Origin: Candidatus Lokiarchaeum ossiferum
Lineage (GTDB): Archaea; Asgardarchaeota; Lokiarchaeia; Sigyniarchaeales; Promethearchaeaceae
Length of the DNA stretch: 32,000 nt
Direction: 5' to 3'
NCBI GenBank assembly: GCA_025839675.1
Contig: CP104013.1
Coordinates: 5,880,001 to 5,912,000, forward strand
Shown: positions 6,878-31,596 of the stretch, piece after piece
Position numbering within the stretch: position 1 is the stretch's first letter
Layout: each line of letters begins with the position of its first letter
Translations under genes and position numbers: made by a program
The notes under the pieces: model-generated
Seen by the model: only the letters and a program-made list of their open reading frames with translations
What the model was told of the DNA's origin: nothing
The model's database searches: none

Positions 6878-7093
6878 ATTCCAATTTCTCTCCGTTGGTA
6901 TCTAAGACGAAAAATGAGGCAAATTCAAAAAAATTTACGATTTATCGTATCCTTTTTTTGTTAATTAGACACTTTCTAATTTTTTTATTGAATCAATATG
7001 CTTATCTTTTCATTGAATTTTCCATTAATCCAGATATTATTCAGTTTAAATCCTGATTTTAATATAATTGCTTACATGATAACTTTTTAACTC

Positions 7094-7100
7094 TATAAAT
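7094..7100 (+). promoter_or_regulatory. TATA-box-like element upstream of the first MscS gene
   Basis: tataaat is centred about 27 nt upstream of the ATG at 7124. That spacing fits an archaeal TATA box driving a leaderless or near-leaderless mRNA. Sequence pattern only. Confidence 0.35.
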
Positions 7101-7123
7101 GAAGTATACAATAGTGAAAAAGC

Positions 7124-8023
7124 ATGGAAGACATTTGGACAAGGTTCGTAGGCATGGAAGATACATGGATTAAGATCATATTTATCTTCGCAATTCTCGT
7201 GATTTATGGGATAATTATATTCCTAATTAACCGTTTCAATCAAAAAACGGCAGGTTCTACATCCACAATTAATGGATTGAAGGTAATTATTCGATTCATT
7301 GCAATTTTGATAATTGTGTTAATAATTTTCTCAATTTTTGCTAATTCAGATCAATTAATTCTTTCAGTTTCTTCAGTATCTGGAATTATTATTGGTTTTG
7401 CAGCAACGGAAGTGGTCGGGCAAATGGTTGCGGGATTATTGCTTATTACCGCAAAACCATTCGATATAGAAGATCTGGTTCAAATAGGAAGTTACCAAGG
7501 AGTGGTTGAAGAAATAAATCTAAATTATACTATCTTGAAATTATTTGATGGTACGCATGTTAAAATCCCCAATAAAAAACTTCTCGATACAAAATTCTTG
7601 AATTTTACTTTGGAAACTGATAAAGCGCTCCAAAAACATCAAGGAATAGAAGAAAAACAACGCAAAATTCCAAAAATGGCCCCTCAAAAATTGAAATGGT
7701 TTGATCGAAAGACTTTTTTGAAATTATTTGGAGATATTACAGAAAACATAATTGAAACAAAAATCACTCGGTATTCTTTCAAAGTTGAGTTGGACTTCAG
7801 TATCGATCCTGAGGTTGTAATAGAAAAGCTAAAAAAAATCTGTGAAAAATACCAACCGATTTATAATTTTAAACCAAGATTTGCAATTGTGGATTTAGGA
7901 TGGCGACCAAAAGTTAAGATTTGGATTTTTTGTTCCAATCCATATCTAATCATGTCAAATCAAAACAATTTCATCACAGAAATTGCAAAGGATTTCTACA
8001 GCAAAGAAAAGGAGGGTGTATAA
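7124..8023 (+). CDS. MscS-family mechanosensitive ion channel
   Basis: Three N-terminal TM helices, then GIIIGFAATEVVGQMVAGLLLITAKPFDIEDLVQIGSYQGVVEEINLNYTILKLFDGTHVKIPNKKLL, which is the MS_channel pore-helix plus beta-domain signature. Confidence 0.75.
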   Translation: MEDIWTRFVGMEDTWIKIIFIFAILVIYGIIIFLINRFNQKTAGSTSTINGLKVIIRFIAILIIVLIIFSIFANSDQLILSVSSVSGIIIGFAATEVVGQMVAGLLLITAKPFDIEDLVQIGSYQGVVEEINLNYTILKLFDGTHVKIPNKKLLDTKFLNFTLETDKALQKHQGIEEKQRKIPKMAPQKLKWFDRKTFLKLFGDITENIIETKITRYSFKVELDFSIDPEVVIEKLKKICEKYQPIYNFKPRFAIVDLGWRPKVKIWIFCSNPYLIMSNQNNFITEIAKDFYSKEKEGV

Positions 8024-9073
8024 ATGACAATTTTAGAAGAAAGTACTGATCCTTGGTTCGATCCCTCTGCATTTTTAGCTTCAGGAGGAACTTGGGAGTT
8101 CCTTAACTTTTCAATTCAGAAATACGCGGTTTTCGCAATATTGCTTGGGATTGTATTAATTTTGCTATTTAATTTTGTATTAAAGTTTCAATTTAAAAAG
8201 TTAGTTGATCGGCGTAAACTTCCCCCGAATATATATAATGGTCTTAAATTTTTCATGAGAATTTTCTTTGGAACTTTAACGATTTGGTTAATACTTGGAA
8301 TTCTTCAAGTCAAAGTTGGTTTTGTGTGGATTATTATTGGGATCTTAACTTCAGCAATCACTTTTGCTTCAATGAAAACAATTAATAATTTTATTGCAGG
8401 AATATGGATTGCATTAAATCGCCCATATATTGTAGGGGATTACGTGAAAATTGGTAGTACGATTGGAATTGTTAAGAATATTTCTACTAATTACACTCAA
8501 TTAATCCACAACGATGCGACAGTTTCATATTTGCCAAATCTTGAATGCTTAACATCAACAATTTTGAATTATACTTGGTCCCTCTCGCTGATTCAGAGAC
8601 AAATAATTGATTTAGAGAAAAATTTGGAAAAAATTATACTAATTCCGGAGTCGAATGAGAAAGATATTGAAAAAAATACTAAAATTCAACTTGTTGGCCA
8701 AATTAAGGCAGATATTAAAGAGCAAAAGCTTATTGTAAAAGAAATAGAGATTTTTGAGGAAGAACTCGATAAAGCTCACAAAGATGGTGTGAAGGATAAA
8801 CACGACTTCTCAAATTATGCTCAGAAAGGAAAAATTGTAAATTACGTATTTACTCTAGAACTCCCAAAGGATTATAATGGAAATGCAGATAAATTGACTT
8901 CGGTGTGTTCCAAATGGGCCAAAGAATTTAATTTTCGACCTCAATGGGATCTAGTGGATATTAACTCCCATTTTGTATATCAATTCACCATCCTTACTCC
9001 CGATCCTTTAGATATTGTCTATTTTCTTGATGATTTTGTTACGGATGTCTATATGACAATTTATCATGTCTAA
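8024..9073 (+). CDS. MscS-family mechanosensitive ion channel (paralogue; K/E-rich insertion in the C-terminal domain)
   Basis: NNFIAGIWIALNRPYIVGDYVKIGSTIGIVKNISTNYTQLIHNDATVSYLPN matches the MS_channel core. The ATG follows the upstream TAA directly (8021-8023 / 8024). Carries a charged coiled-coil-like insert, LEKNLEKI...KEIEIFEEELDKAHKDG. Confidence 0.7.
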   Translation: MTILEESTDPWFDPSAFLASGGTWEFLNFSIQKYAVFAILLGIVLILLFNFVLKFQFKKLVDRRKLPPNIYNGLKFFMRIFFGTLTIWLILGILQVKVGFVWIIIGILTSAITFASMKTINNFIAGIWIALNRPYIVGDYVKIGSTIGIVKNISTNYTQLIHNDATVSYLPNLECLTSTILNYTWSLSLIQRQIIDLEKNLEKIILIPESNEKDIEKNTKIQLVGQIKADIKEQKLIVKEIEIFEEELDKAHKDGVKDKHDFSNYAQKGKIVNYVFTLELPKDYNGNADKLTSVCSKWAKEFNFRPQWDLVDINSHFVYQFTILTPDPLDIVYFLDDFVTDVYMTIYHV

Positions 9074-21314: not shown

Positions 21315-23918
21315 TCATTTCATAAAGACTAATTGATAAATTGAATATAAAGACGGAAGATGGAAATTAAAAATGAATTTATTTTTCAGGAGCAAAAAAT
21401 TTAGGAGAATAATTAAAAAGAATGATATCAAGCAAATCCAATCTTTGTTAGACCAACCAACATGATATATATTTGTACGGCTTGAATTTAATCCAAAACC
21501 TCGTGCTTCGATTGTAGATGCCGTTGTTTTTGCTTTTCGAATTATCGAAATTAATAATGTAGTAATTCTCTGTAATATATGTCGATAAATCTTTTTAATG
21601 GAATTTCCCTTTTTTATTCCAGATCCTCGTAAGGTTTGCGCAATTTCAATTGTATTGGATTCTTGTTCTATTAAAGGAATGTAACGTAGTCCAATCATAA
21701 AAGAAAATGCATATCTATAAGGAATTCCGATTTCAATTAAAGAGTAAACTAAATCCTTTGGGGCAGTTGTTCGGGTGAATATCACTGCTGTTGAAACAAA
21801 GATAATTATAAGAAATCCCGTTCTAAGAGAATAATACAGAGCCAAACGTCGAACGGGCAATCTTTCGGTGAAAATATAAAATAATACTTGATCCGAACCA
21901 AGATTATTGGCATCAAAAAGAGTGTTTAGTGGAATGTAGATGAAAGTGAGCATTATTACCCACCGAATTTGCCGTAAAAGGCGTTTAGATGGGATGCCAC
22001 CGAGTTTGGCAATAATCAAAATCACTCCATAGCATATTGCTAAAAAAAAAATACTCCTTTGATAAAAAAGGAAAAATGTTAGAACTATTAAAATCAGCAG
22101 TTTTACTACTGGATTTAATTGATATATCCAACTGGTTTCATCAAATGTGCTTGATTTATGAAGAAAAATGTTTATACGCGAAATTTTACGATGTTTTTTT
22201 TGTTGTTTCTTTGTTTCCTTAGTTTTTTTTTTGGTTTGATCATTATTTATTAATTTCTTTTGATTTGAAATGGCATCAATATGGTTAGTTTTTTCTTTGA
22301 GTTCAATTATGCGGGAACAATTGGCCTTTAATAATTCTCGATCATGAGACACAATGACTATTGTTTTCCCAAGCTTGTGAAATTCATGCAGGATTTCAAA
22401 AATTCTTTGCATTGATTGGGCATCCTGCCCAATAAACGGCTCATCAACAAGTAATAAATCGGGATTATAACTAAAAATTGATGCAAGGTTCAAACGCCGC
22501 TTTTGTCCCCAACTAAGACAGAAAGGATTCTTGTCTTCAAGGATTTGAAGATCACTTCGCTTTTCACCTATCAAAGGGGTATAAAGATGGGAGATTTTCT
22601 CTTCTTCTTCTGCAGATAATTTATTCTTTTGATGATCTGCTTGTTTACTTTTAGTTTTCTTAAAATTTTGAACAAAATTTCGCGGTGCAAATAAAATTTC
22701 ATCCTTTATCGTACTTTCAAATATTTGATTTTCTGGATTTTGAAAAATAAATCCAATTTTTGGGATAAAGGAGTCTAAATCAAACTTTCCATATTCTTGG
22801 CCATTAAAATATAGTTTTCCTGAGCTTGGCTCAAGCATATGGGCTATCAAGTAGAGTAGTGTGGTTTTTCCAGACCCATTATCTCCAACTAATCCAATAA
22901 ATTCTCCAGAATTAATTTTTAATGAAAAATTGGAAAAGATACCAGGAAAAGTATTAGTATAAGAAAAAGTCACATCGTCAATACGAATTACTTCTTCTCT
23001 ATTCGATGCTGGTGCCTTAGTTTGAGTGCCCAGATCCGTTAAATTGGATGAAGATTCATATTTTTTTATTGAAGAATCATCTCTAAGATGGATTTTTGGA
23101 GATTTTAATTTATATTGGAGATATTTTTGCGGATTTCCTTGAAAATCAATACTACCTTCATGATTTAGTACGAGAATTTGATCTACTATAGTCATAAAGG
23201 GTTGAAGGCGGTGTTCTACAATGATGATCGTTAAATCGGGGTTGATTCTTCGTAATTTATTCAATATTTTTAGAAATCTTATTTCCCCATGAGAATCTAA
23301 AAATGCAAGAGGTTCATCTAAAATAAGAATTTTGGGATTCATCACCAGATTTGCAGCTAAAATAACTTTTTGTTTTTCGCCCCCACTTAATGAAAAAATC
23401 GACCTTTTCAATAATTTGGTTATACCCAGATCTTCTGCAATCTGATTTACTCGCAATTGAGTTTCTTTCTTTGATATATTTAAGTTTTCGGCAGCAAACG
23501 CAATTTCATCAAAGACGGTGAACGTTACTAACTGTTCATCTGCATTTTGAAATACATAACTTATATCACGTGCGATATTTTCCTGATCGTGCGCCCATAT
23601 ATCCCTATTCTGCAGTAAAAATTCTCCACTGTATTGACCTGTTATGTTGAATGGAATCCTACCTGCAATAGTATTACACAAAGTACTCTTTCCTGATCCG
23701 CTCACCCCACCAATTAATAGTGTTTTTCCTGAAGATATATTTAGATTTATGTTTTTTAGAGCAAAAGGACCGGAATTCCCATAACGAAAAGAATAGTTCT
23801 TCAATTGGACAATATCTAATTGATAATTTTGTTGAGAAATCAGTGATTGGAGGCTAGCATTTGAAGCTTTAGTTGTAAATGTATCTTCTATTTTTGCTGA
23901 TTCATCCTTATTAATCAT
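21315..23918 (-). CDS. ECF transporter module fused into one polypeptide: EcfA - EcfA' - Lys-rich linker - EcfT (YkoD+YkoC-like)
   Basis: ATPase 1 (about residues 36-265): GVSGSGKST, LSGGEKQKV, ILILDEP. ATPase 2 (about 310-545): GDNGSGKTT, LSWGQKRRL, LLLVDEP. Linker: DQTKKKTKETKKQQKKHRK. T domain (about 595-867): LNPVVKLL, FTRTTAPKDLVYSLIEIGIPYRYAFSFMIGLRYIPLIEQE...AQTLRGSG and EARGFG, the CbiQ/EcfT signature. Confidence 0.8.
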   Translation of the reverse strand: MINKDESAKIEDTFTTKASNASLQSLISQQNYQLDIVQLKNYSFRYGNSGPFALKNINLNISSGKTLLIGGVSGSGKSTLCNTIAGRIPFNITGQYSGEFLLQNRDIWAHDQENIARDISYVFQNADEQLVTFTVFDEIAFAAENLNISKKETQLRVNQIAEDLGITKLLKRSIFSLSGGEKQKVILAANLVMNPKILILDEPLAFLDSHGEIRFLKILNKLRRINPDLTIIIVEHRLQPFMTIVDQILVLNHEGSIDFQGNPQKYLQYKLKSPKIHLRDDSSIKKYESSSNLTDLGTQTKAPASNREEVIRIDDVTFSYTNTFPGIFSNFSLKINSGEFIGLVGDNGSGKTTLLYLIAHMLEPSSGKLYFNGQEYGKFDLDSFIPKIGFIFQNPENQIFESTIKDEILFAPRNFVQNFKKTKSKQADHQKNKLSAEEEEKISHLYTPLIGEKRSDLQILEDKNPFCLSWGQKRRLNLASIFSYNPDLLLVDEPFIGQDAQSMQRIFEILHEFHKLGKTIVIVSHDRELLKANCSRIIELKEKTNHIDAISNQKKLINNDQTKKKTKETKKQQKKHRKISRINIFLHKSSTFDETSWIYQLNPVVKLLILIVLTFFLFYQRSIFFLAICYGVILIIAKLGGIPSKRLLRQIRWVIMLTFIYIPLNTLFDANNLGSDQVLFYIFTERLPVRRLALYYSLRTGFLIIIFVSTAVIFTRTTAPKDLVYSLIEIGIPYRYAFSFMIGLRYIPLIEQESNTIEIAQTLRGSGIKKGNSIKKIYRHILQRITTLLISIIRKAKTTASTIEARGFGLNSSRTNIYHVGWSNKDWICLISFFLIILLNFLLLKNKFIFNFHLPSLYSIYQLVFMK

Positions 23919-24024: not shown

Positions 24025-24837
24025 TTGAGAACTCGAATTAAGAAACTCTCGCTTGAAGATCTTCATCTCGCTGTCAACCATCTTTTTGCAGAATCGGGGT
24101 TTGATTTGCACTTAGATTCGAAGGACTCGTTCGAATTAAAGAGTAAAAAGCATTATGTTTTCAAATCCACTCTTCTTCCACAAAATAGAGATGTGTGTGT
24201 GAAATTTTTCAATGATGAAATACCTCTATACCATCAACGGTGGAAAAATGAAGTTCAAAATATGACTATCCTCCCACAATTATCCTATCTTATAAACACT
24301 CCAGAACTGATCGCAAGTGCGCAAAATGTAATTGTTTATGAATTCTTAATTGGCGATAATCTTTTTGATTTATTATTGGAGAAAAGAATTTCTTTAGATA
24401 CTTTACGGTCTCTTGCTGAAATTTTCTCAACTCTGCATGACCGAGGGTTCATCTATGGTGATGCGCGATTACGAAATATGATCTTGACAAAAAAATCAAA
24501 AATATACTTGATAGATCCTGAAGAAATGCAAAAGGGCGATTCTTTGGAAGATGTTGCAGAATTTTTGTGTTCATTTATTGATTTTACCCCTGGAATCTTT
24601 CAAAATAATATGGATCTATATTATCTTGATACAATGATCCAGTTTCTGCAATATTATCTTAAATTTGCACCAATAGGGTTGCCTGAGAAAGCCTACTTGG
24701 ATCGTGAATTTTGGGTGGAAATAATCCTGAATTCTTTAAAACAAATAACAATGAGGAGATCAATCTCCTTATCTCCTTCAAAATGGAGTGAAATTAATCA
24801 AATGTTATTGTATTATCTAAAAAAAATGCAAATTTAA
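24025..24837 (+). CDS. Small protein-kinase-like fold protein (Bud32/RIO/Kdo-kinase-sized, atypical catalytic loop)
   Basis: Candidate kinase elements in order: VCVKFF (beta3 Lys), WKNEVQNM (alphaC Glu), hinge VIVYEFLIGDNL, catalytic loop FIYGDARLRNMIL (D....N, with Tyr in place of His), and YLIDPEEM (DFG-equivalent Asp). TTG start; there is no in-frame ATG until about residue 79. Confidence 0.5.
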   Translation: MRTRIKKLSLEDLHLAVNHLFAESGFDLHLDSKDSFELKSKKHYVFKSTLLPQNRDVCVKFFNDEIPLYHQRWKNEVQNMTILPQLSYLINTPELIASAQNVIVYEFLIGDNLFDLLLEKRISLDTLRSLAEIFSTLHDRGFIYGDARLRNMILTKKSKIYLIDPEEMQKGDSLEDVAEFLCSFIDFTPGIFQNNMDLYYLDTMIQFLQYYLKFAPIGLPEKAYLDREFWVEIILNSLKQITMRRSISLSPSKWSEINQMLLYYLKKMQI

Positions 24838-24838
24838 A

Positions 24839-25501
24839 CTATATTACGCCTGTTTTTTTAATTCTTTCCACAATCAGATATCCTAAAACACCTGCTATCA
24901 GAATACCCGAAAGAAAACCGAACATCATAGCCATAACAAACAAACTCCAATGGAGAATATATATTTTTCCTGTAATTATCCAAAAAAGCGGGACTTGGCT
25001 TAGATTTCCAATTCCGGCGGCAATTGCCCATCCAAGCTTTGTATCTGATTCTCCAAAGAGTTGCATTAAATACATTCCGATAAAAAGGAATGCTCCTTCA
25101 TAAAGTGTAATTCCCACTTCCATTATCCCCCAGCTAGAGCCGAAAAGAAAATTCATAAATCCTTGAATCGTGGCTGTGACAAAAATGGTTCGTTTTTTTC
25201 CAGTTAATCCATAAGCAATGACCATCCATAACAGGTGATGCCCTGATACTAATTGAGTTCCCCCGACAAATGGGTACCAGGTTTTTATTAGTAAACTGAA
25301 AGGAATTAATCCAGATATAAATCCTCCCATTATACCCAAGATTGAAGCAATGAGTAAATCTTGAGTGGTGAAGAAATAATTTGACTTTTTTCCTCTTTTT
25401 TTCATTGCTAGGTTTCCAGTATCCATTAATTTCTCTGAATTCTGGTTTTCAAGATTATTTTCTGGATCTTTTCCTTCATTCACCTCATTTGTACCCTCCA
25501 T
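24839..25501 (-). CDS. ECF transporter substrate-specific (S) component, YkoE-like
   Basis: Six-TM protein. FFTTQDLLIASILGIMGGFISG and AYGLTGKKRTIFVTATIQGFMNFLFGSSWGIMEVGITLYEGAFLF resemble Bacillus YkoE as I remember it (AAYMIRKPGAALVSEIIAALVECLLGNPSG...). Has an unusual ~40-aa acidic/polar N-terminal extension; the true start may be internal (Met26 or Met33). Confidence 0.5.
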   Translation of the reverse strand: MEGTNEVNEGKDPENNLENQNSEKLMDTGNLAMKKRGKKSNYFFTTQDLLIASILGIMGGFISGLIPFSLLIKTWYPFVGGTQLVSGHHLLWMVIAYGLTGKKRTIFVTATIQGFMNFLFGSSWGIMEVGITLYEGAFLFIGMYLMQLFGESDTKLGWAIAAGIGNLSQVPLFWIITGKIYILHWSLFVMAMMFGFLSGILIAGVLGYLIVERIKKTGVI

Positions 25502-25526
25502 ATTTTTCTCCTTCTTTCTACCTAAG

Positions 25527-26144
25527 TTATTCTAAATATAATGCATTGAAATATTTCACCGAGAATTTTGAATTGTGAACATGATTAAATCCGGGAGATA
25601 AATTTTCTTGGAATAATGAGATCACTTCTGGATCATTTTCAATTCCTTCCATCAAAACCGCAGACATCAGAGGACCATCACCCCCATTAGTGCGATTTGG
25701 GATGATCTTTCCATCAATATGAGTGACTATTATGAAATCATCTGGGTGTTCTTCAAGCAATCTAAATGGTAACAAATATGTAAGATAACCATCTGTCGCT
25801 TCAAAACGAAAATATTGTGGGTTTTGTAATAGTTGCTTCATAGATTGTAGTACATCCCATACTCTGACCCCCGATATATTAAATGTTCTTGTCGTATTGT
25901 ACATATTTTTCCAGAAATAGGATACATTTTCAATTCTTGGAATTGAATCATCAATGAAATTTGAATAACCGATAAATGATTCTTGAGTTACTTCCCCATA
26001 AACGCGAACACACCATGTTTCTTCACACGATTCATATTTTTCCAGAATCTTCTGATATTCGACCCAATTATAAACAAAAAGACTTACCAAAATCCCGCTG
26101 AAAATTACTGTAAATAGAGCAATTCGAAGTGTCCGTTTTTTCAT
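25527..26144 (-). CDS. N-terminally anchored extracellular protein with one sulfite-oxidase/YedY-like (SUOX-fold-like) domain
   Basis: Signal anchor MKKRTLRIALFTVIFSGILVSLFV. The domain is FNISGVRVWDVLQSMKQLL..YFRFEATDGYLTYLLPFRLLEEHPDDFIIVTHIDGKIIP...GDGPLMSAV...HNSKFSVKYFNALYL. It is a clear paralogue of the next gene. The fold call is tentative. Confidence 0.45.
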   Translation of the reverse strand: MKKRTLRIALFTVIFSGILVSLFVYNWVEYQKILEKYESCEETWCVRVYGEVTQESFIGYSNFIDDSIPRIENVSYFWKNMYNTTRTFNISGVRVWDVLQSMKQLLQNPQYFRFEATDGYLTYLLPFRLLEEHPDDFIIVTHIDGKIIPNRTNGGDGPLMSAVLMEGIENDPEVISLFQENLSPGFNHVHNSKFSVKYFNALYLE

Positions 26145-26185
26145 TGTGAATCATGTGATGTAATTATAATAAAAAAAAGGAGATA

Positions 26186-27049
26186 TTAAATAAACTTGTT
26201 TCTTTTAGGAAAAATCGCTTGAATTGATAAAACGACACAAAATATTAATGAAAACACATGAAATCCCGGAATAGTTGGAAATTCATCCTTATTTCCAGTT
26301 GAATTTCCGCTTGTGGAATTGGTAGTTGAATTGCTTGTGGTGTTAGTTTCGGTGATAGTATTGTTTGTTGTTCCTTCTTCTGGTTGTTCAAATCCTGTTG
26401 GCTCATCTGAGATATAAATTGCAGCAACTCGTTGTGCAGATAATTTACTATTATGAACGAAATTTTCCCCTTCTTCAAACAAGTCTTTAAACATAGCTAT
26501 CATTTCTAAATCGTTTTCTATGGCCTTCATTTCCACTTCCATCCTTAGAGGGCCTTCGCTGGTCCCTATTAAAACTCCATTTTGATGAGTTGTAATGTAG
26601 ATGTCATTATTATGTTCCTTGAGAATTCGGATAGGAAGTTTCGCAAAAAGTGATCCAAATCCATATCCATCTTCTCCAATAAACTGTGCATAGGTGGCAT
26701 TTTCATTCAATAAATTAGAAGTATTTACTACATCCCAGAGTAAAGATCCTGAAATTTGATAAGTATATGAATTATTGAGTTTATTCACTCTCGTAAAACT
26801 TAGATCTTCGATCCTATCATAAGTTCCATTTCGCAATTCTTCTAATGATACAGTAAATTCTGTCTTTAATCCGGGACCATAAAAAAGAACTAAATTATTA
26901 TCATAATAACTTCTATAATCTACTGTATTAAGTCTCGTTGATGCAAAATTAAATGGAATGCCATAGAAAGGAATAATAAGAAAAAAGATAAAATAAATAA
27001 AACCTAAATTTCTCTTTCTATTCTTCAAAAAATTCTTCGATAAAGTCAT
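26186..27049 (-). CDS. Surface protein: one SUOX-fold-like domain, Thr/Asn/Ser-rich linker, PGF-CTERM anchor
   Basis: YQISGSLLWDVVNTSNLL..YAQFIGEDGYGFGSLFAKLPIRILKEHNNDIYITTHQNGVLIGTSEGPLRMEV...HNSKLSAQRVAAIYISDE is paralogous to the 205-aa protein. This is followed by TNNTITETNTTSNSTTNSTSGNSTGN and PTIPGFHVFSLIFCVVLSIQAIFPKRNKFI. Confidence 0.5.
   Translation of the reverse strand: MTLSKNFLKNRKRNLGFIYFIFFLIIPFYGIPFNFASTRLNTVDYRSYYDNNLVLFYGPGLKTEFTVSLEELRNGTYDRIEDLSFTRVNKLNNSYTYQISGSLLWDVVNTSNLLNENATYAQFIGEDGYGFGSLFAKLPIRILKEHNNDIYITTHQNGVLIGTSEGPLRMEVEMKAIENDLEMIAMFKDLFEEGENFVHNSKLSAQRVAAIYISDEPTGFEQPEEGTTNNTITETNTTSNSTTNSTSGNSTGNKDEFPTIPGFHVFSLIFCVVLSIQAIFPKRNKFI
26189..26278 (-). other. 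PGF-CTERM-type archaeal sorting signal (C-terminal 30 codons of the 287-aa protein)
   Basis: IPGF, then a hydrophobic helix, then a basic tail (KRNK), directly after a T/N/S-rich linker. This is the architecture of archaeosortase A substrates. Confidence 0.55.
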
Positions 27050-27050
27050 T

Positions 27051-28073
27051 TTATATTAACTCCTTGGAAGAAACTCCTCCTTTTTTGATAAATATAACCG
27101 AAATTATACTCATTCCCATTAAAAACATTAAAGGAATCGATGAAATTGTTTTATCTTCATTTTCATCAGTATTGGAATTGTCAGTCTCAGTCCCAGTACT
27201 TGAGGAATTCGTAGATGTATTGGTTGGGTTCAAAGACTCTAAGTAGGCATAATCAACAGAATTTGAAAAATCTAATTCGTGAGTCCAAGATATTGCATGG
27301 GCTTCTCCTCCGGTGATGTCCGCAGTTGCTAATGCAAATCGATATCTTCCCTCAGTCGAGTTACTAAAGTTAGAGAATTGTACATCAACATCAGGAGATA
27401 ATGTCGTAAGAGGTCTTCGGATTTCAAGTTGATATTGATATGTGAAATAATCCCAGTTCCCATATATCATGGCGGCTTCTGGATCCCGATAAATCCCTGT
27501 TTCTGCTTCTAACCAAGATTGATCGTCATGGCATTGATCGATAAGATCATAGACTCCAGAATTGTTTGCCTTTGTATTACGTGCCCATAACCAATTATCA
27601 ACTCGGGCACCGGGCTCGGTTGTCAGCATACTGTTAGATTCTAAATACATTCCCACTGAATAATTTGTACAATTAATATTCCAGCAAAGCATAAATAAAT
27701 CTCGTTGATTTACTGGTAAATCGAAAGAATTATCATTCCAGCCAGCCAGGATATACAGATCCGTATCATCAAATACCCATTGAACATGAATATATGTTTT
27801 AAAGTAATATTCGCTCTGATTATTGCTTCCCGCCGCAACAATATATCGATAGACATCTTCACGATTCCATACAGATTCATTGCCAATTCCATCCAAGGTT
27901 ATTTCTGGATTTGCAATGTATCGGGCATAATGACGGGTAATTCCATGATGATCCATGCAATCTTCATCACTATCTCCCCAATCTGCAGCAATAAAAGAAA
28001 TAGGTGAAACCAGAATAAATCCTAAAAATACAACAATAGGAAACAGTAATTTCTTATTCGTTTGTTTTTTCAT
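27051..28073 (-). CDS. Surface protein with DOMON-superfamily (EB_dh / CBD9-like) domain, S/T/N-rich linker and C-terminal TM anchor
   Basis: Sec-type signal MKKQTNKKLLFPIVVFLGFILVSPISFIAA. EITLDGIGNESVWNRED (the IDG...W opening of CBD9/EB_dh domains), WVFDDTDLYILAGWNDNSFD and VDNWLWARNTKANNSGVYDLID (the DxWxW...g..D motif I associate with EB_dh). Then NPTNTSTNSSSTGTETDNSNTDENED and SSIPLMFLMGMSIISVIFIKKGG. Confidence 0.45.
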   Translation of the reverse strand: MKKQTNKKLLFPIVVFLGFILVSPISFIAADWGDSDEDCMDHHGITRHYARYIANPEITLDGIGNESVWNREDVYRYIVAAGSNNQSEYYFKTYIHVQWVFDDTDLYILAGWNDNSFDLPVNQRDLFMLCWNINCTNYSVGMYLESNSMLTTEPGARVDNWLWARNTKANNSGVYDLIDQCHDDQSWLEAETGIYRDPEAAMIYGNWDYFTYQYQLEIRRPLTTLSPDVDVQFSNFSNSTEGRYRFALATADITGGEAHAISWTHELDFSNSVDYAYLESLNPTNTSTNSSSTGTETDNSNTDENEDKTISSIPLMFLMGMSIISVIFIKKGGVSSKELI

Positions 28074-28148
28074 GATAGAAAATCCATTCCTTGACAGTAA
28101 ATTAAAAAAGAAAAAAATTATCTTGTTTAAGTTTTCTAGTCCAATTTA

Positions 28149-30314
28149 CTATTTTCTGCGACGTAAAGTAATAAACAGAATTGTGCTAACACTTGCGATC
28201 ACTAAAAACCCTGGTAAAAATCCTGGAATTGATGATTTTGTTTCTGTTGTTGTGGTTGTAGTGGTTGAATTGGTCGTTGTTGTATTGGTTGTTGTTGGAA
28301 GTTGTGTCGTAGGTAATAAGGTGACACGTACTTCAACAATTAATCCGATATAGCTACCCTTTGATAAACCGGGTGCAATAAATTGGTAGGGTCCGCGATG
28401 ATAGCCAACGATATCTCCTTCTGTTTCATTCATGAGAATTGCGATTTTATTTTCATTATCTATATCCTCATTGATAAATCCATGCTCAATATCCCCTTTG
28501 GAGAAGACTTTATTCCCACCGTATCCATCTAAGGCTATAACACTTACACTATAGTTTTGATCTCCATCGTTCACGAATGTTGCGATGATGCTTGCTAAGG
28601 TAAATCCGCTGCATTCGACTTGATCTCCATCAGAATTTGGCCAACCATATCCTTCATCGGAATATCCCCAATCGTAACTCTCATAATCTCCTACTGAAGC
28701 GGTTGTATTTTGACTGCTAAAATATCCTGCTAAGGTTCCATTTAGCGTCACATTTACTTTCCAATAATCCCCAAGAATAATCTGGTTGACATCTTTTACT
28801 TTCTGATTATCTTCAAGTTCATCTCCATAAACTCGAAAATCGCCGTTTGATTCTTGGTAATCCGCTAACCATTCCATGGTACCACTATTGTTAACCATGA
28901 AAGCAACAATGGTTGCGTTGTTATCACTGTACTTATTAAAATTAGGATCACGTAATAACAAGTCTTTCATTTCAAACTCGGATGAATGGCCGTCTGCTGC
29001 ACTTATATTTATTGTCCATGCATCACCCCATCCTTCTACTTCTAATAAATGGACTGGATTAAATCCAAAAACTTCTACTGTATCACTAATATTCATTGAA
29101 GAAATTTCAATTTGGTGGTAATTAATATCATTATACATCAAAATATCATCAAGACTGTAGGTTGAATTCACTCCATTCTTTGTCATATTGATTGTGGTTG
29201 ATGGAACTGCTGTTGAAGGTAAATTTGGTGTATACCAGTTCATATCATCAACAGTTACTCGAATTTCTACAATTCCTCCAATATAATTTCCTTTACTCGC
29301 TCCTGGAGCAATAAATTGGAAAGGTCCTCGATAGTATCCTAACTGTTCACCATCAGAAACATTCATTAAAATGGGTTGCTTGCCTTCATTATTGAAACTA
29401 TCCATACCTAATACCATATCTTTTTGATCAAATACCTTATTGGCTCCGTATCCATCAAATGCGATAAAAGATACTTCATAAAAATCATTATCATCAACAA
29501 ATGGATCTAGTATACTTTCTACTGTAAATCCCGTACATGAAACAGGTGTTCCTTCACTATCTGGCCAACCATATCCTTCATCAGAATAGCCCCAATCATA
29601 AGTTGTGTAATTTCCAAGGCTTGTAGAATTCGCTGTATTAATAAATCCCACTATTTCTTCATCAACAACTATATCGACTTTCCATTCCTTATTGTATTCA
29701 ATTGTAGTCACATTTTTAATTTTTAAATTTTCGGCAATATTTTCACCAAAAACACGAAAATATTCATTTGTTTCTTCAGCATCAAAATCATCAAGCCAAT
29801 GCATTACATCATTAATTTCAATTGCTAATCCAATCATGATGGAATAACTTGCATCTGTATATTTATAAAATTCGCCATCAGAAAGGATGATATCAGAAAC
29901 ATTGAAGGTATTTTCGTTACCATCAAAAGAAGTTATATTAATACTCCCTGCATCTGCCCATCCTAAGACTTCAAGTAAATATAGTGGGTTTATACCATAA
30001 ACTGTTGCTGTTTCATTATAGTCAAAGCTATAAAGTGGGAATGTATGATTCTCATATTTTGTATAATTTAAGATTTGTTCTAAAGTAAAGATGGTAATAA
30101 GACTATCTCTTTTAAATTCTAATGAAACATCTGGAGTCTCACCTGAGGGATAAGTAAAATTTAACCATCCATCATCTGCTGAAGATGGTTTAATGTCTTC
30201 TTTGTATATAACATCCATATCGGTTGTATTTGCAAAAGTGGGAACTGCAAAATTAGCAAATAACATTGATATACAGATGATTGAAAGAATTATCGGTGTT
30301 TTTTTCATATTCAT
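28149..30314 (-). CDS. Large surface protein: 2 x (~310-aa unit of two SUOX-fold-like domains), poly-Thr linker, PGF-CTERM anchor
   Basis: Sec-type signal MNMKKTPIILSIICISMLFANFAVPTFA; I prefer the ATG at 30314 (or 30308) over the GTG at 30353. Contains an internal duplication (see repeat feature). The YedY-like strings are VSCTGFTVESIL...FIAFDGYGANKVF...GYYRGPFQFIAPGASKGNYIGGIVEIRV and the second copy VECSGFTLASII...VIALDGYGGNKVF...GYHRGPYQFIAPGLSKGSYIGLIVEVRV. More than 20 N-x-S/T sequons. Confidence 0.55.
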   Translation of the reverse strand: MNMKKTPIILSIICISMLFANFAVPTFANTTDMDVIYKEDIKPSSADDGWLNFTYPSGETPDVSLEFKRDSLITIFTLEQILNYTKYENHTFPLYSFDYNETATVYGINPLYLLEVLGWADAGSINITSFDGNENTFNVSDIILSDGEFYKYTDASYSIMIGLAIEINDVMHWLDDFDAEETNEYFRVFGENIAENLKIKNVTTIEYNKEWKVDIVVDEEIVGFINTANSTSLGNYTTYDWGYSDEGYGWPDSEGTPVSCTGFTVESILDPFVDDNDFYEVSFIAFDGYGANKVFDQKDMVLGMDSFNNEGKQPILMNVSDGEQLGYYRGPFQFIAPGASKGNYIGGIVEIRVTVDDMNWYTPNLPSTAVPSTTINMTKNGVNSTYSLDDILMYNDINYHQIEISSMNISDTVEVFGFNPVHLLEVEGWGDAWTINISAADGHSSEFEMKDLLLRDPNFNKYSDNNATIVAFMVNNSGTMEWLADYQESNGDFRVYGDELEDNQKVKDVNQIILGDYWKVNVTLNGTLAGYFSSQNTTASVGDYESYDWGYSDEGYGWPNSDGDQVECSGFTLASIIATFVNDGDQNYSVSVIALDGYGGNKVFSKGDIEHGFINEDIDNENKIAILMNETEGDIVGYHRGPYQFIAPGLSKGSYIGLIVEVRVTLLPTTQLPTTTNTTTTNSTTTTTTTETKSSIPGFLPGFLVIASVSTILFITLRRRK
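28152..28235 (-). other. PGF-CTERM archaeal sorting signal with duplicated PGFL
   Basis: SSIPGFLPGFLVIASVSTILFITLRRRK is preceded by LPTTQLPTTTNTTTTNSTTTTTTTETK (28236-28316). Confidence 0.65.
28320..30176 (-). repeat. Intragenic tandem duplication, two ~310-codon units (about 29250-30176 and 28320-29240)
   Basis: Matching strings sit at a constant 308-311 residue offset: VYGINPLYLLEVLGW / VFGFNPVHLLEVEGW, YDWGYSDEGYGWPDSEG / YDWGYSDEGYGWPNSDG, and GYYRGPFQFIAPG / GYHRGPYQFIAPG. DNA-level similarity is still visible, e.g. ccaaccatatccttcatc at 28641 and 29567. Confidence 0.85.
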
Positions 30315-30555
30315 CACATTAAATACGTATAATATTTGTCTAATATCTCTCACAGTATTAATTGGTCGATATTAACAATGAAACATAACGATGTTTTTCT
30401 AATTAAGTTTTTCTTTTTATAATACCCGATCTCAAGATAAAAACTTCAAGAAAGTGTTTTTGGACAAAATGATTCACTTTAGTAAATAATTTTTCAAAGT
30501 ATAGGGGCATTAATATTAATATTTGATCTTGAACTAAACTAATCAGAAAATAACT

Positions 30556-31596
30556 ATGGATATTAAACAAGAAACATGGGGGAAATACAAGTTAATTATT
30601 GTTGCCGATCCAGAGACGAATTTTTTAGTCAAACTCTCAACTTTTGGAGCCACTTTAGTTGATATTCAACTTCCAGATCGCAATGGGGATTTATCTTCAG
30701 TAACTTATTCACATTCGTCTCCGGAAGACTATAAAAATAAAGTGGGGTATTTTGGGGCTTCAGTAGGTAGAGTGGCTAACCGTATTGGAAATGCTAAATT
30801 TGAATTGGATGGAGAAGTTTATTCTCTAAATAAAAATAATGGAAAACATTGTTTGCATGGAGGAAAGAAGGGTTTTTCTTATAAAGAGTGGGTCTTAGAA
30901 GGGATTCGGCATGATTCAATGAAAAATAATGTGCGAATAACCTTCCAATATATTAGTCCTGATGGTGAAGAAGGATTTCCAGGACAAATGACTACTCAAA
31001 TCACTTATATTGTATCTCCGATGAGTATTGGGTGGGAATTCACTGCATCAACCACCAAACCTTCGATTGTTAACCTTACTAATCATGCTTATTGGAATTT
31101 GAATGGACTTCATAGTTCAATTGAATCTCATGATTTAACATTATATGCAGATTCATTTAGCATTAATGATGATTCTTGTCTTCCCACAGGTGAATTAGGT
31201 AATGTGGCAGAATATAACGTGGATTTTCGTGAAAAAAGGAATATCAAGCTAGCTCTTGAGCAATTTGGAGATATTGATAATAATTTCTTTCTCACCGGAT
31301 ATCAGTTCAAAAAGGATAAAACCGATTTATTCCTTGCTGCAAAATTATGGTCTCCCCTTTCTGGGAGAAAAATGGTTGTTGAAACTACTGAACCTTGTAT
31401 TCAAATCTACACTGGAAATTTCATGGGCAATATCGTGGCAAATGGAATTAAGTGTAAAAAACACAGTGCCATATGCTTGGAAACTCAAAAAATACCAAAT
31501 GCAATTAATTTACCTGAGTTCGCAGATTCTGTTATCCTTCGTCCAGACGAAAAATACTATCATAAAACTGTTCATACCTTCAGCATTCAAAAATAA
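30556..31596 (+). CDS. galM: Aldose 1-epimerase (galactose mutarotase family)
   Basis: GATLVDIQLPDRNG, YFGASVGRVANRIGNAKFELDGEVYSLNKNNGKHCLHGGKKGF, NLTNHAYWNL and CLETQKIPNAIN are the canonical Aldose_epim motifs, including the catalytic His/Glu contexts. Confidence 0.85.
   Translation: MDIKQETWGKYKLIIVADPETNFLVKLSTFGATLVDIQLPDRNGDLSSVTYSHSSPEDYKNKVGYFGASVGRVANRIGNAKFELDGEVYSLNKNNGKHCLHGGKKGFSYKEWVLEGIRHDSMKNNVRITFQYISPDGEEGFPGQMTTQITYIVSPMSIGWEFTASTTKPSIVNLTNHAYWNLNGLHSSIESHDLTLYADSFSINDDSCLPTGELGNVAEYNVDFREKRNIKLALEQFGDIDNNFFLTGYQFKKDKTDLFLAAKLWSPLSGRKMVVETTEPCIQIYTGNFMGNIVANGIKCKKHSAICLETQKIPNAINLPEFADSVILRPDEKYYHKTVHTFSIQK

Follow-up and report, generated by a model that had tools for sequence, protein, structure and literature searches.

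Transporters of the energy-coupling factor (ECF) type are textbook ATP-binding cassette (ABC) importers that dispense with extracytoplasmic binding proteins. The Cbi and Nik systems carry extra small subunits (CbiN, NikK/L), and no ECF transporter is known to be served by large extracytoplasmic ligand-binding proteins. The closest structural analogue of the surface proteins studied here is PruR, a secreted protein with a Cys-less sulfite oxidase (SUOX) fold and a truncated hairpin, which binds a pterin via an Asn-x-Tyr pair and a stacking Trp (PMC11194511). Here, we report the analysis of a 32-kb window of contig CP104013.1 from Candidatus Lokiarchaeum ossiferum, in which the predicted genes of an ECF transporter lie together with genes for four surface proteins built from SUOX-like and DOMON-like domains. 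We consider it moderately probable that five consecutive genes, together with a gene for a protein of 867 amino acids (aa), represent a dedicated group-I-like ECF importer of Asgard archaea, whose surface proteins capture a heteroaromatic micronutrient. Literature searches that combined ECF with Oxidored_molyb, with pterin and with Asgard yielded no description of the system, or of any ECF operon with SUOX- or DOMON-like accessories.

Gene content of the operon

Five consecutive open reading frames (ORFs) on the minus strand, like all genes of the operon, encode proteins of 734, 340, 287, 205 and 220 aa, separated by gaps of 75, 1, 41 and 25 nt. These ORF calls agree in every length and gap with a first-pass annotation of the window. 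Exact protein matches connect the five-gene set to the locus tags NEF87_005002 to NEF87_005006. Existing database annotation recognises the S component and the ATPase, and lists the four surface proteins (NEF87_005003 to NEF87_005006) as hypothetical. The functional unit reaches down to position 21315. Its features, in positions of the window, are as follows.

28149..30353, minus strand: 734-aa surface protein with signal peptide, SUOX-like domains in the order A-B-A-B, T/N-rich stalk and PGF-CTERM-like anchor ('IPGFLPGF...RRRK')
29685..30167, minus strand: A1 domain, residues 63-223, putative and highly divergent SUOX-like domain
29244..29684, minus strand: B1 domain, residues 224-370, putative SUOX-like domain with DGYG and RGPFQFIAPG motifs and Cys273 at the 'W-x-G' position
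28764..29237, minus strand: A2 domain, residues 373-530
28311..28763, minus strand: B2 domain, residues 531-681, containing Cys581
27051..28073, minus strand: 340-aa surface protein with signal peptide, putative CBM9/EB_dh (DOMON-superfamily)-like beta-sandwich, S/T/N stalk and C-terminal anchor
26186..27049, minus strand: 287-aa 'C' protein with signal peptide, one SUOX-like domain, N/T/S stalk and PGF-CTERM-like anchor
25527..26144, minus strand: 205-aa 'D' protein with N-terminal membrane anchor and one Cys-less SUOX-like domain
24839..25501, minus strand: 220-aa predicted ECF-transporter S component (substrate-binding membrane subunit, polytopic), PF09819
21315..23918, minus strand: 867-aa fused EcfA-EcfA'-EcfT energising module, ABC_tran twice plus CbiQ

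The fifth gene is predicted to encode an ECF S component, which the first-pass annotation had missed. The 220-aa protein scored 27.7 bits against PF09819 (gathering score 25.2), and orthologues scored 25.4 and 22.9 bits. It is named 'ECF transporter S component' in RefSeq and UniRef, and a relative carries the JGI name 'ABC-type thiamin/hydroxymethylpyrimidine transport system permease subunit'. The S component is 50-68% identical to its relatives. PF09819 was the only family to match, with no match to the CbiM/NikM-type PF01891, and searches of PDB sequences with the single sequence and with a profile returned no solved S-component structure at E<=10. The EcfA-A'-T gene is located 920 nt downstream of the S gene. 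Its 867-aa product contains two ABC_tran domains (6.6e-56) and a CbiQ domain (4e-25, 89 bits), and scored 325.8 bits against TIGR04521 ECF_ATPase_2, for which the cut-off is 330. No MsrQ-type haem-b or cytochrome membrane electron carrier was found in the operon of the window or in related loci.

Conservation of the operon in Asgard archaea

A metagenome scan anchored on the S component identified 77 loci (L013-L089) with 44-76% S identity, which correspond to 41 clusters at 90% identity and 10 at 70%. The loci were picked via S-component motifs and are all fairly close relatives. Six-frame ORFs of the 77 loci were searched with our own hidden Markov models (HMMs), and the denominators given below refer to loci with enough flanking DNA. 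The D gene was found directly upstream of S in 64/64 loci, and EcfAA' directly downstream of S in 57/58. EcfT was present within 3 kb downstream of S in all 30 loci, fused to AA' in 2 and as a separate ORF in 28. Upstream of S, the A-B gene was observed within 4.5 kb in 31/32 loci and the DOMON-like gene within 2.6 kb in 34/47. These counts are in line with the co-conservation of the surface genes that the first-pass annotation had predicted. Upstream genes were most often in the order A-B, DOMON-like, D (24 loci); the next most frequent order was A-B, D (6 loci). The spacing between D and S was short or overlapping, and residues in the membrane anchor of D are conserved ('RN..I' and 'YN[WL]'). 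As S and EcfA-A'-T are near-invariant operon partners of the surface genes, we interpret the set as a transporter with accessory surface proteins. Wherever a source is named by organism, it belongs to the Asgard archaea, namely Lokiarchaeota/Promethearchaeota, Hodarchaeota or Harpocratesius.

The canonical operon consists of the A-B protein, the CBM9/EB_dh-like protein, D, S, EcfA-A' and EcfT. Relative to this order, the L. ossiferum copy has a duplicated A-B unit, an extra anchored paralogue (C), a fused A-A'-T gene and an unrelated gene inserted between S and A-A'-T. The fusion, which is shared by the window, a lokiarchaeal metagenome-assembled genome (L001) and Ca. Harpocratesius repetitus (L006), is the minority form. 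The 287-aa C protein was found only in the clade near Lokiarchaeum (L001, L003, L006) and is rare in the metagenome survey; its orthologues match PF00174 weakly. Within this clade, L001 encodes A-B, DOMON-like, C, D and S, then a patatin insertion and the fused A-A'-T gene. The set is shared by the Logan contig L003, where TPR and GAF genes separate A-B from DOMON-like, and YdjM and MGMT genes separate S from the ATPase gene. Harpocratesius, the only locus recovered in a scan of genome contigs for the set, has A-B, C, D, S and A-A'-T contiguous on one strand and no DOMON-like gene. The site between S and EcfAA'T seems to tolerate insertions, being occupied by a kinase gene in the window, by the genes mentioned above in L001 and L003, and by nothing in L006 and most of the metagenomic loci. 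Other arrangements include A-B and DOMON-like genes divergent from D-S (L008), the order DOMON-like, D, S, A-A'-T with S directly adjoining A-A'-T (L009), a gene for three SUOX-like domains followed by A-B, DOMON-like, D and S (L011), and two tandem S genes between D and a fused EcfAA'T gene (L038, a 206-kb contig, positions 7086-8672).

A divergent SUOX-like domain in six copies

The first-pass annotation described one domain type that recurs six times and related it to the SUOX/Oxidored_molyb family. Both statements hold, although the recurrence is visible by profiles only. The analysis supports one very divergent SUOX-like domain that would be present four times in the 734-aa protein and once each in the 287-aa and 205-aa proteins. 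Within the 734-aa protein, the A-B unit is duplicated, (A-B)x2. In BLAST comparisons among the trimmed domains only three pairs were related, namely A1/A2 (33% identity), B1/B2 (54%) and the domains of the 287-aa and 205-aa proteins (35%). The two latter proteins are paralogues, with 33% identity by BLASTP (E 1e-28). When narrow alignments of A, B and C/D were compared with each other, neither BLAST nor hhalign gave significant results (probabilities 2-3%), and the narrow C/D alignment used as a profile found nothing relevant among PDB sequences.

An HMM search with the C/D domain enlarged the family to 76 representatives, and the link to A and B emerged only after this enlargement. PF00174 (Oxidored_molyb) was matched at E<=0.01 by 43/68 scanned members of the C/D-type family, with a best value of 3e-14, so that by sequence the family can be placed as a branch of Oxidored_molyb. 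The 205-aa and 287-aa proteins of the window had no Pfam match at E<=1, and PF00174 was the top or near-top sub-threshold match in their orthologues. The best of these, the D-type L001_204, scored 23.3 bits over profile positions 9-134 of 169 (gathering score 24). Against the PDB, the D family profile matched plant sulfite oxidase 1ogp (0.003), PruR 7kom (0.004), SorA (0.009) and PruR 7kos (0.013). Profiles of the enlarged family matched SorA 2blf, sulfite oxidase 1ogp and nitrate reductase 2bii, and equally well 7kom and 7kos, which are labelled 'Oxidored_molyb domain'.

The hhalign probabilities of A and B against the enlarged C/D family were 81% and 52% in the first run and 92.7% and 91.4% in the next. 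Deep alignments, in which A and B aligned end to end with the C/D-type family, raised A to 95.2% (P 3e-8) and B to 95.4% (P 2e-8). As a control for the first run, 100 column shuffles gave a mean of 12.6 (s.d. 2.5, maximum 23.8), as compared to observed values of 37.6 and 31.2. Direct HMM cross-matches also join the A and B domains with the SUOX-like family. The direct comparison of A with B was still weak (15%), and the relation is thus transitive via the C/D family.

The SUOX-like domains are about 150-170 aa long, begin at the first beta-strand and have no dimerisation domain. Tandem proteins with two or three domains occur at L044 (3411-4850), L011 (1939-3342) and L007 (10001-11071), in some cases just upstream of the A-B gene, and five copies were detected in each of two giant proteins, P0077 (2251 aa) and P0079 (1578 aa). 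The NCBIfam model NF041762, 'GEGP motif-containing diheme protein', weakly matched A1 (residues 116-170, E 9e-6). The 'GEGP' motif is probably the [D/E]-G-P motif of the SUOX-like fold. In that case, the same Cys-less domain would also occur in a bacterial family, joined there to two haems; a literature search on 'GEGP motif' found nothing.

Cofactor residues and similarity to PruR

In SUOX enzymes, an active-site Arg segment precedes the first beta-strand. Aligned with SorA and plant sulfite oxidase, the SUOX-like domains match at the first beta-strand and then again from a 'W-x-G-V' motif on. The stretch between the first strand and 'W-x-G', which in the enzymes forms the hairpin with the molybdenum (Mo)-ligating Cys, is shorter than in SorA and Cys-free. 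No conserved Cys was found among 66 D-type proteins that adjoin an S component, and the hairpin regions of the 205-aa and 287-aa proteins contain no Cys. Of the contacts to the molybdenum cofactor (Moco) that the first-pass annotation had marked for inspection, the Mo-ligating Cys is not conserved among the 66 D-type orthologues. It had also pointed to two Cys residues of the B domains, C273 and C581, in a context like that of the Mo-ligating Cys of YedY. Both residues are present, but they are aligned to the residue just ahead of the S/T-G in the 'W-x-G' motif, downstream of the Cys hairpin. Most of 42 B domains have Tyr or Trp at this position ('YWG', 'YNG'), and Harpocratesius and L008 have Ser. 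The position and the replacements in relatives rule out these Cys residues as Mo ligands.

Other motifs of the fold, D-G-Y, [D/E]-G-P and the C-terminal beta-strand, have been kept in the SUOX-like domains. Among the 66 D-type proteins, G50, G92, D118 and G157 are invariant, and P158 is conserved in 98%. An aromatic residue occupies position 120 in all of them (Y 88%, F 11%, W 1%), and likewise position 194, whose equivalence to W160 of PruR could not be mapped. The 'DGY' motif of the family aligns to 'NDY' of PruR 7kom. The pterin ring in PruR is contacted by an Asn-x-Tyr pair, N102 and Y104 (PMC11194511), and the aligned 'NDY' may well be this pair. On these sequence features, the SUOX-like domains appear to resemble the Cys-less, secreted and pterin-binding PruR more than they resemble the enzymes.

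The 340-aa DOMON-like protein

The 340-aa protein of the window had no Pfam match at E<=10, and its UniRef name is carbohydrate-binding-domain protein. Sub-threshold Pfam matches were obtained for its four homologues, with EB_dh in 2/4 (best E 6e-5) and CBM9_1 in 1/4 (0.011). Foldseek with a low-confidence model (pLDDT 48) retrieved the CBM9 module 7nwn (7e-5), NxrC (7b04_C, 3e-4) and EbdC (2ivf_C, 0.04); as the model is poor, these matches serve as corroboration only. The alignment used as a profile found nothing relevant among PDB sequences. Together, the sub-threshold Pfam matches and the Foldseek results from this model give tentative support to the earlier assignment to an EB_dh/CBM9-like branch of the DOMON superfamily.

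Five residues, C39, H43, C130, M149 and H259, are conserved across seven relatives. The family has a strongly conserved acidic N-terminal motif, 'DWGDSDEDC..HHGI..YARYI' (residues 31-53), and a second motif, 'CWNINCTN' (residues 130-137). C39 and C130 are kept in more distant relatives, suggesting a disulfide or a metal site. Axial ligands of haem b are Met/Lys in EbdC and Met/His in CDH-type domains. The family alignment contains no invariant Lys, which rules out EbdC-type Met/Lys haem ligation. Of the haem ligands that the first-pass annotation had proposed to look for, the Met/Lys pair is thus absent, whereas M149, H43 and H259 are conserved, leaving room for a Met/His or His/His site.

Surface location

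Hydrophobic segments are present near the N-termini of the first four proteins, at residues 19-37 (734 aa), 10-28 (340 aa), 15-33 (287 aa) and 6-24 (205 aa). The 734-, 340- and 287-aa proteins end in an S/T/N-rich stretch followed by a hydrophobic C-terminal helix and a basic tail. Both observations correspond to the signals, linkers and anchors of the first-pass annotation. The number of N-X-S/T sequons found, relative to the number expected, was 24/9.3 for the 734-aa protein, 9/4.3 for the 340-aa protein, 9/4.6 for the 287-aa protein and 5/1.6 for the 205-aa protein. This represents a 2- to 3-fold enrichment over composition in the four surface proteins, and no enrichment was seen in the 220- and 867-aa proteins. 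The high sequon density suggests Sec export with N-glycosylation. No twin-arginine motif (S/T-R-R-x-F-L-K) was found in the four N-termini, MNMKKTPIIL..., MKKQTNKKLLFP..., MTLSKNFLKNRKRNLGF... and MKKRTLRIALF... PGF-type C-termini were observed in the 734-aa protein ('IPGF...RRRK') and the 287-aa protein ('IPGF...KRNK'), and only 'IP' in the 340-aa protein. The NCBIfam PGF-CTERM model had no match to the window proteins at E<=1. The predicted features fit glycosylated surface proteins, and the combination of signal or anchor segments with sequon enrichment strengthens the surface location proposed at first.

Gene models and neighbouring genes

The 734-aa ORF opens with a GTG at 30353. Its true start is probably one of the ATG codons at 30314 or 30308 (M14, M16), which open a typical signal peptide (MNMKKTPIILS...). 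About 20 nt upstream of these codons lies a TATA-like stretch rich in A/T, aaatattatacgtattt (region 30290-30353, minus strand). The NCBI model of 705 aa starts later still, within the hydrophobic core. Two plus-strand ORFs that are antisense in the surface-protein genes, at 27955-28353 (132 aa) and 28876-29121 (81 aa), are V-rich and of low complexity. We treated them as spurious, and they are very likely not genes.

The gene inserted between the S gene and the EcfAA'T gene converges with the S gene, and a single nucleotide separates its end from the S stop codon.

24025-24837, plus strand: 270-aa Bud32/RIO/APH-like kinase-fold gene

Upstream of the operon, at 30556-31596 on the plus strand, is a divergent gene for an aldose 1-epimerase (GalM-like). 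Its position is kept in L001, and in L003 it lies upstream on the opposite strand. We take it as local synteny of close relatives, outside the system.

A proposed mechanism

In the mechanism that we favour, the glycosylated SUOX-like domains would be held at differing heights above the membrane by their stalks and anchors, and would bind a scarce small heteroaromatic nutrient or cofactor precursor. The A-B protein, and C in the Lokiarchaeum clade, would be placed on stalks farther out. D, at the membrane beside the S component, would pass the ligand on. We regard D as the best candidate for the subunit that touches S because its gene always adjoins S and its N-terminal anchor has conserved residues. 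The S component would then topple and release the ligand into the cell, powered by EcfA-A'-T through ATP hydrolysis. The DOMON-like protein would be an accessory ligand-binding, possibly haem-binding, subunit that is dispensable in some lineages. Inward transport is assumed here, by analogy with known ECF transporters. The absence of the catalytic Cys, the retained D-x-aromatic motif and the Sec-type export with glycosylation argue for heteroaromatic ligand binding over redox catalysis.

The class of the ligand can be suggested only tentatively. The fold points to a pterin, to which we give a low probability, and the family of the S component points to a thiamin/hydroxymethylpyrimidine (HMP)-type pyrimidine, to which we give a somewhat lower one. 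A more specific version of the mechanism, which we consider rather unlikely, is that a relay of Cys-less PruR-like domains and a possibly haem-binding DOMON-like protein scavenges a pterin-type cofactor or precursor, possibly keeping the ligand reduced. Molybdopterin/tungstopterin, methanopterin and folate-related pterins would be the candidates. If true, the operon would encode the first dedicated pterin uptake system and would break the rule that ECF transporters have no binding proteins.

Alternative explanations

Several observations weigh against an importer with ligand-capturing surface proteins. The capture role, with its putative ligand, binding pocket and protein-protein contacts, is a prediction from the genes, and it has no direct precedent since ECF transporters are defined as being without extracytoplasmic binding proteins. 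For A and B themselves no match was found in Pfam or the PDB, and even the deep B profile found nothing in the PDB with HMMER. The AlphaFold2 model of residues 373-734 of the 734-aa protein, from a 5-row alignment, reached a pLDDT of 42 and gave only noise in Foldseek (best E 0.3). The model of the 340-aa protein, from 4 rows, is an all-beta sandwich with a pLDDT of 48 and a pTM of 0.48. With both models being poor, profile-profile statistics alone carry the fold assignment of A and B. Neither the 'PW' motif of PruR nor its second stacking Trp could be mapped in the SUOX-like family. At L007 and L010, which encode distant SUOX-like relatives, no S gene was found in the sequenced flank. Finally, the conservation of H43, M149 and H259 in the DOMON-like protein would also fit a haem site and hence a redox role, and NF041762 weakly matched 16/39 members of the SUOX-like family, a hint at a pairing of this domain with haem elsewhere.

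The two last points also lend weight to the extracellular Mo/haem redox apparatus that the first-pass annotation had suggested. In an updated form of this explanation, the ectodomains would carry a pterin/Moco-like cofactor and haem b, and the ECF module would deliver the cofactor outward, in analogy to the Listeria RibU/FmnA/EetB ECF components, which provide flavin for extracytosolic flavoproteins. A SUOX fold and an EB_dh-like fold do co-occur, some family members also weakly match SoxC, SorA or MsrP models, and the tight linkage to the ECF genes would fit cofactor delivery as well. We nevertheless consider a redox module unlikely. The Mo-ligating Cys is absent and the Cys of the B domains is unconserved and elsewhere in the fold; the proteins are sequon-rich and of Sec type, with no twin-arginine translocation (Tat) signal; and there is no invariant Lys for EbdC-type ligation. 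Furthermore, in 13/47 loci no DOMON-like gene was detected in the 2.6 kb upstream of S, Harpocratesius has none, and the operon is without an MsrQ- or cytochrome-type membrane electron carrier. Another explanation retains import but replaces the ligand by an inorganic substrate, such as a metal cation or an oxyanion of the molybdate/tungstate type, with the surface proteins acting like CbiN or NikK/NikL. The Pfam name of PF09819 is 'ABC-type cobalt transport system, permease component', a CbiQ match is found in the T unit, and the conserved DOMON-like motif 'DWGDSDEDC..HHG' is acidic and His-rich. Moreover, Rodionov et al. are said to have reported in 2006 that the group-I metal systems are the only ECF transporters known with extra extracytoplasmic or membrane subunits. 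The S component is, however, not CbiM/NikM-like, with no match to PF01891 and a match to PF09819 only, and JGI gives relatives the name of a thiamin/HMP permease cluster of orthologous groups (COG). The accessory domains, in addition, come from a pterin-binding fold, and their conserved D-x-aromatic motif matches the pterin contact of PruR. An inorganic substrate thus seems very unlikely to us.

We give the lowest probability, and consider it highly improbable, to the explanation that the surface proteins are generic glycoproteins (adhesins or glycan-binding proteins) with no part in transport, merely encoded beside or co-regulated with an ordinary ECF vitamin transporter. Glycoproteins with stalks, anchors and several domains are typical of archaeal surfaces, CBM9 is the best match of the 340-aa model, the giant proteins P0077 and P0079 have five or more such domains, and tandem forms occur at loci with no S gene seen in the flank. 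On the other hand, D adjoins S with short or overlapping spacing in 64/64 loci, the membrane anchor of D is conserved ('RN..I' and 'YN[WL]'), and A-B was present in 31/32 loci, even with rearrangements and in lineages whose S identity falls to about 45%. The maintenance of gene order at this level of identity indicates a shared function.

Significance

With two to four surface proteins, a conserved ECF operon such as this would establish a new class of architecture among these transporters, and would provide a test case for how a ligand is handed over to a toppling S component. It would also extend the non-enzymatic, ligand-binding branch of the SUOX fold, represented by PruR, from proteobacterial signalling to archaeal transport. 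Asgard archaea, the closest known prokaryotic relatives of eukaryotes, live in syntrophy and are difficult to grow. A micronutrient that they scavenge from their partners could, once identified, inform their cultivation and models of their metabolic dependencies. The four 'hypothetical proteins' NEF87_005003 to NEF87_005006 gain a testable role.

Comparison with known systems

The SUOX-like domains share the PF00174 fold and an extracytoplasmic location with MsrP/YedY and its partner MsrQ, SorAB and SoxCD. They differ from these systems by having neither the Mo-ligating Cys, the Tat signal and the dimerisation domain, nor a haem partner of MsrQ or SorB type. The 340-aa protein is tentatively linked to CBM9 of xylanases, EbdC and NxrC by the sub-threshold Pfam matches of its homologues and by the top Foldseek matches. 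Unlike these, it is a stalked, anchored, stand-alone protein encoded in a transporter operon, and the Met/Lys ligands of EbdC are not conserved.

PruR (PDB 7kos, 7kou, 7kom, 7kp2, 7rkb; PMC11194511) is similar to the SUOX-like domains in being small, secreted and Cys-less with a shortened hairpin, and the family profile matched 7kom (E 0.004) and 7kos (E 0.013) as strongly as true sulfite oxidases. PruR also works with a membrane protein encoded immediately downstream, as D would with S. The partners differ, however: PruR is a proteobacterial, single-domain protein that signals to a diguanylate cyclase/phosphodiesterase of DcpA type, whereas the partner in the window is a predicted ECF S component, as in 64/64 loci. 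The domains of the window are archaeal, anchored and glycosylation-rich, and comprise three divergent types (A, B and C/D) with up to four copies per protein. The 'PW' motif is not evident in them, and pterin binding is putative.

Among transporters, the group I ECF systems YkoEDC and CbiMNQO/NikMNQO are like the window in that an S component, duplicated EcfA ATPases and a CbiQ-type T component are encoded together. What distinguishes the Asgard operon from the known ECF systems is its conserved set of two to four SUOX- and DOMON-like surface proteins, which would take part in the transport.

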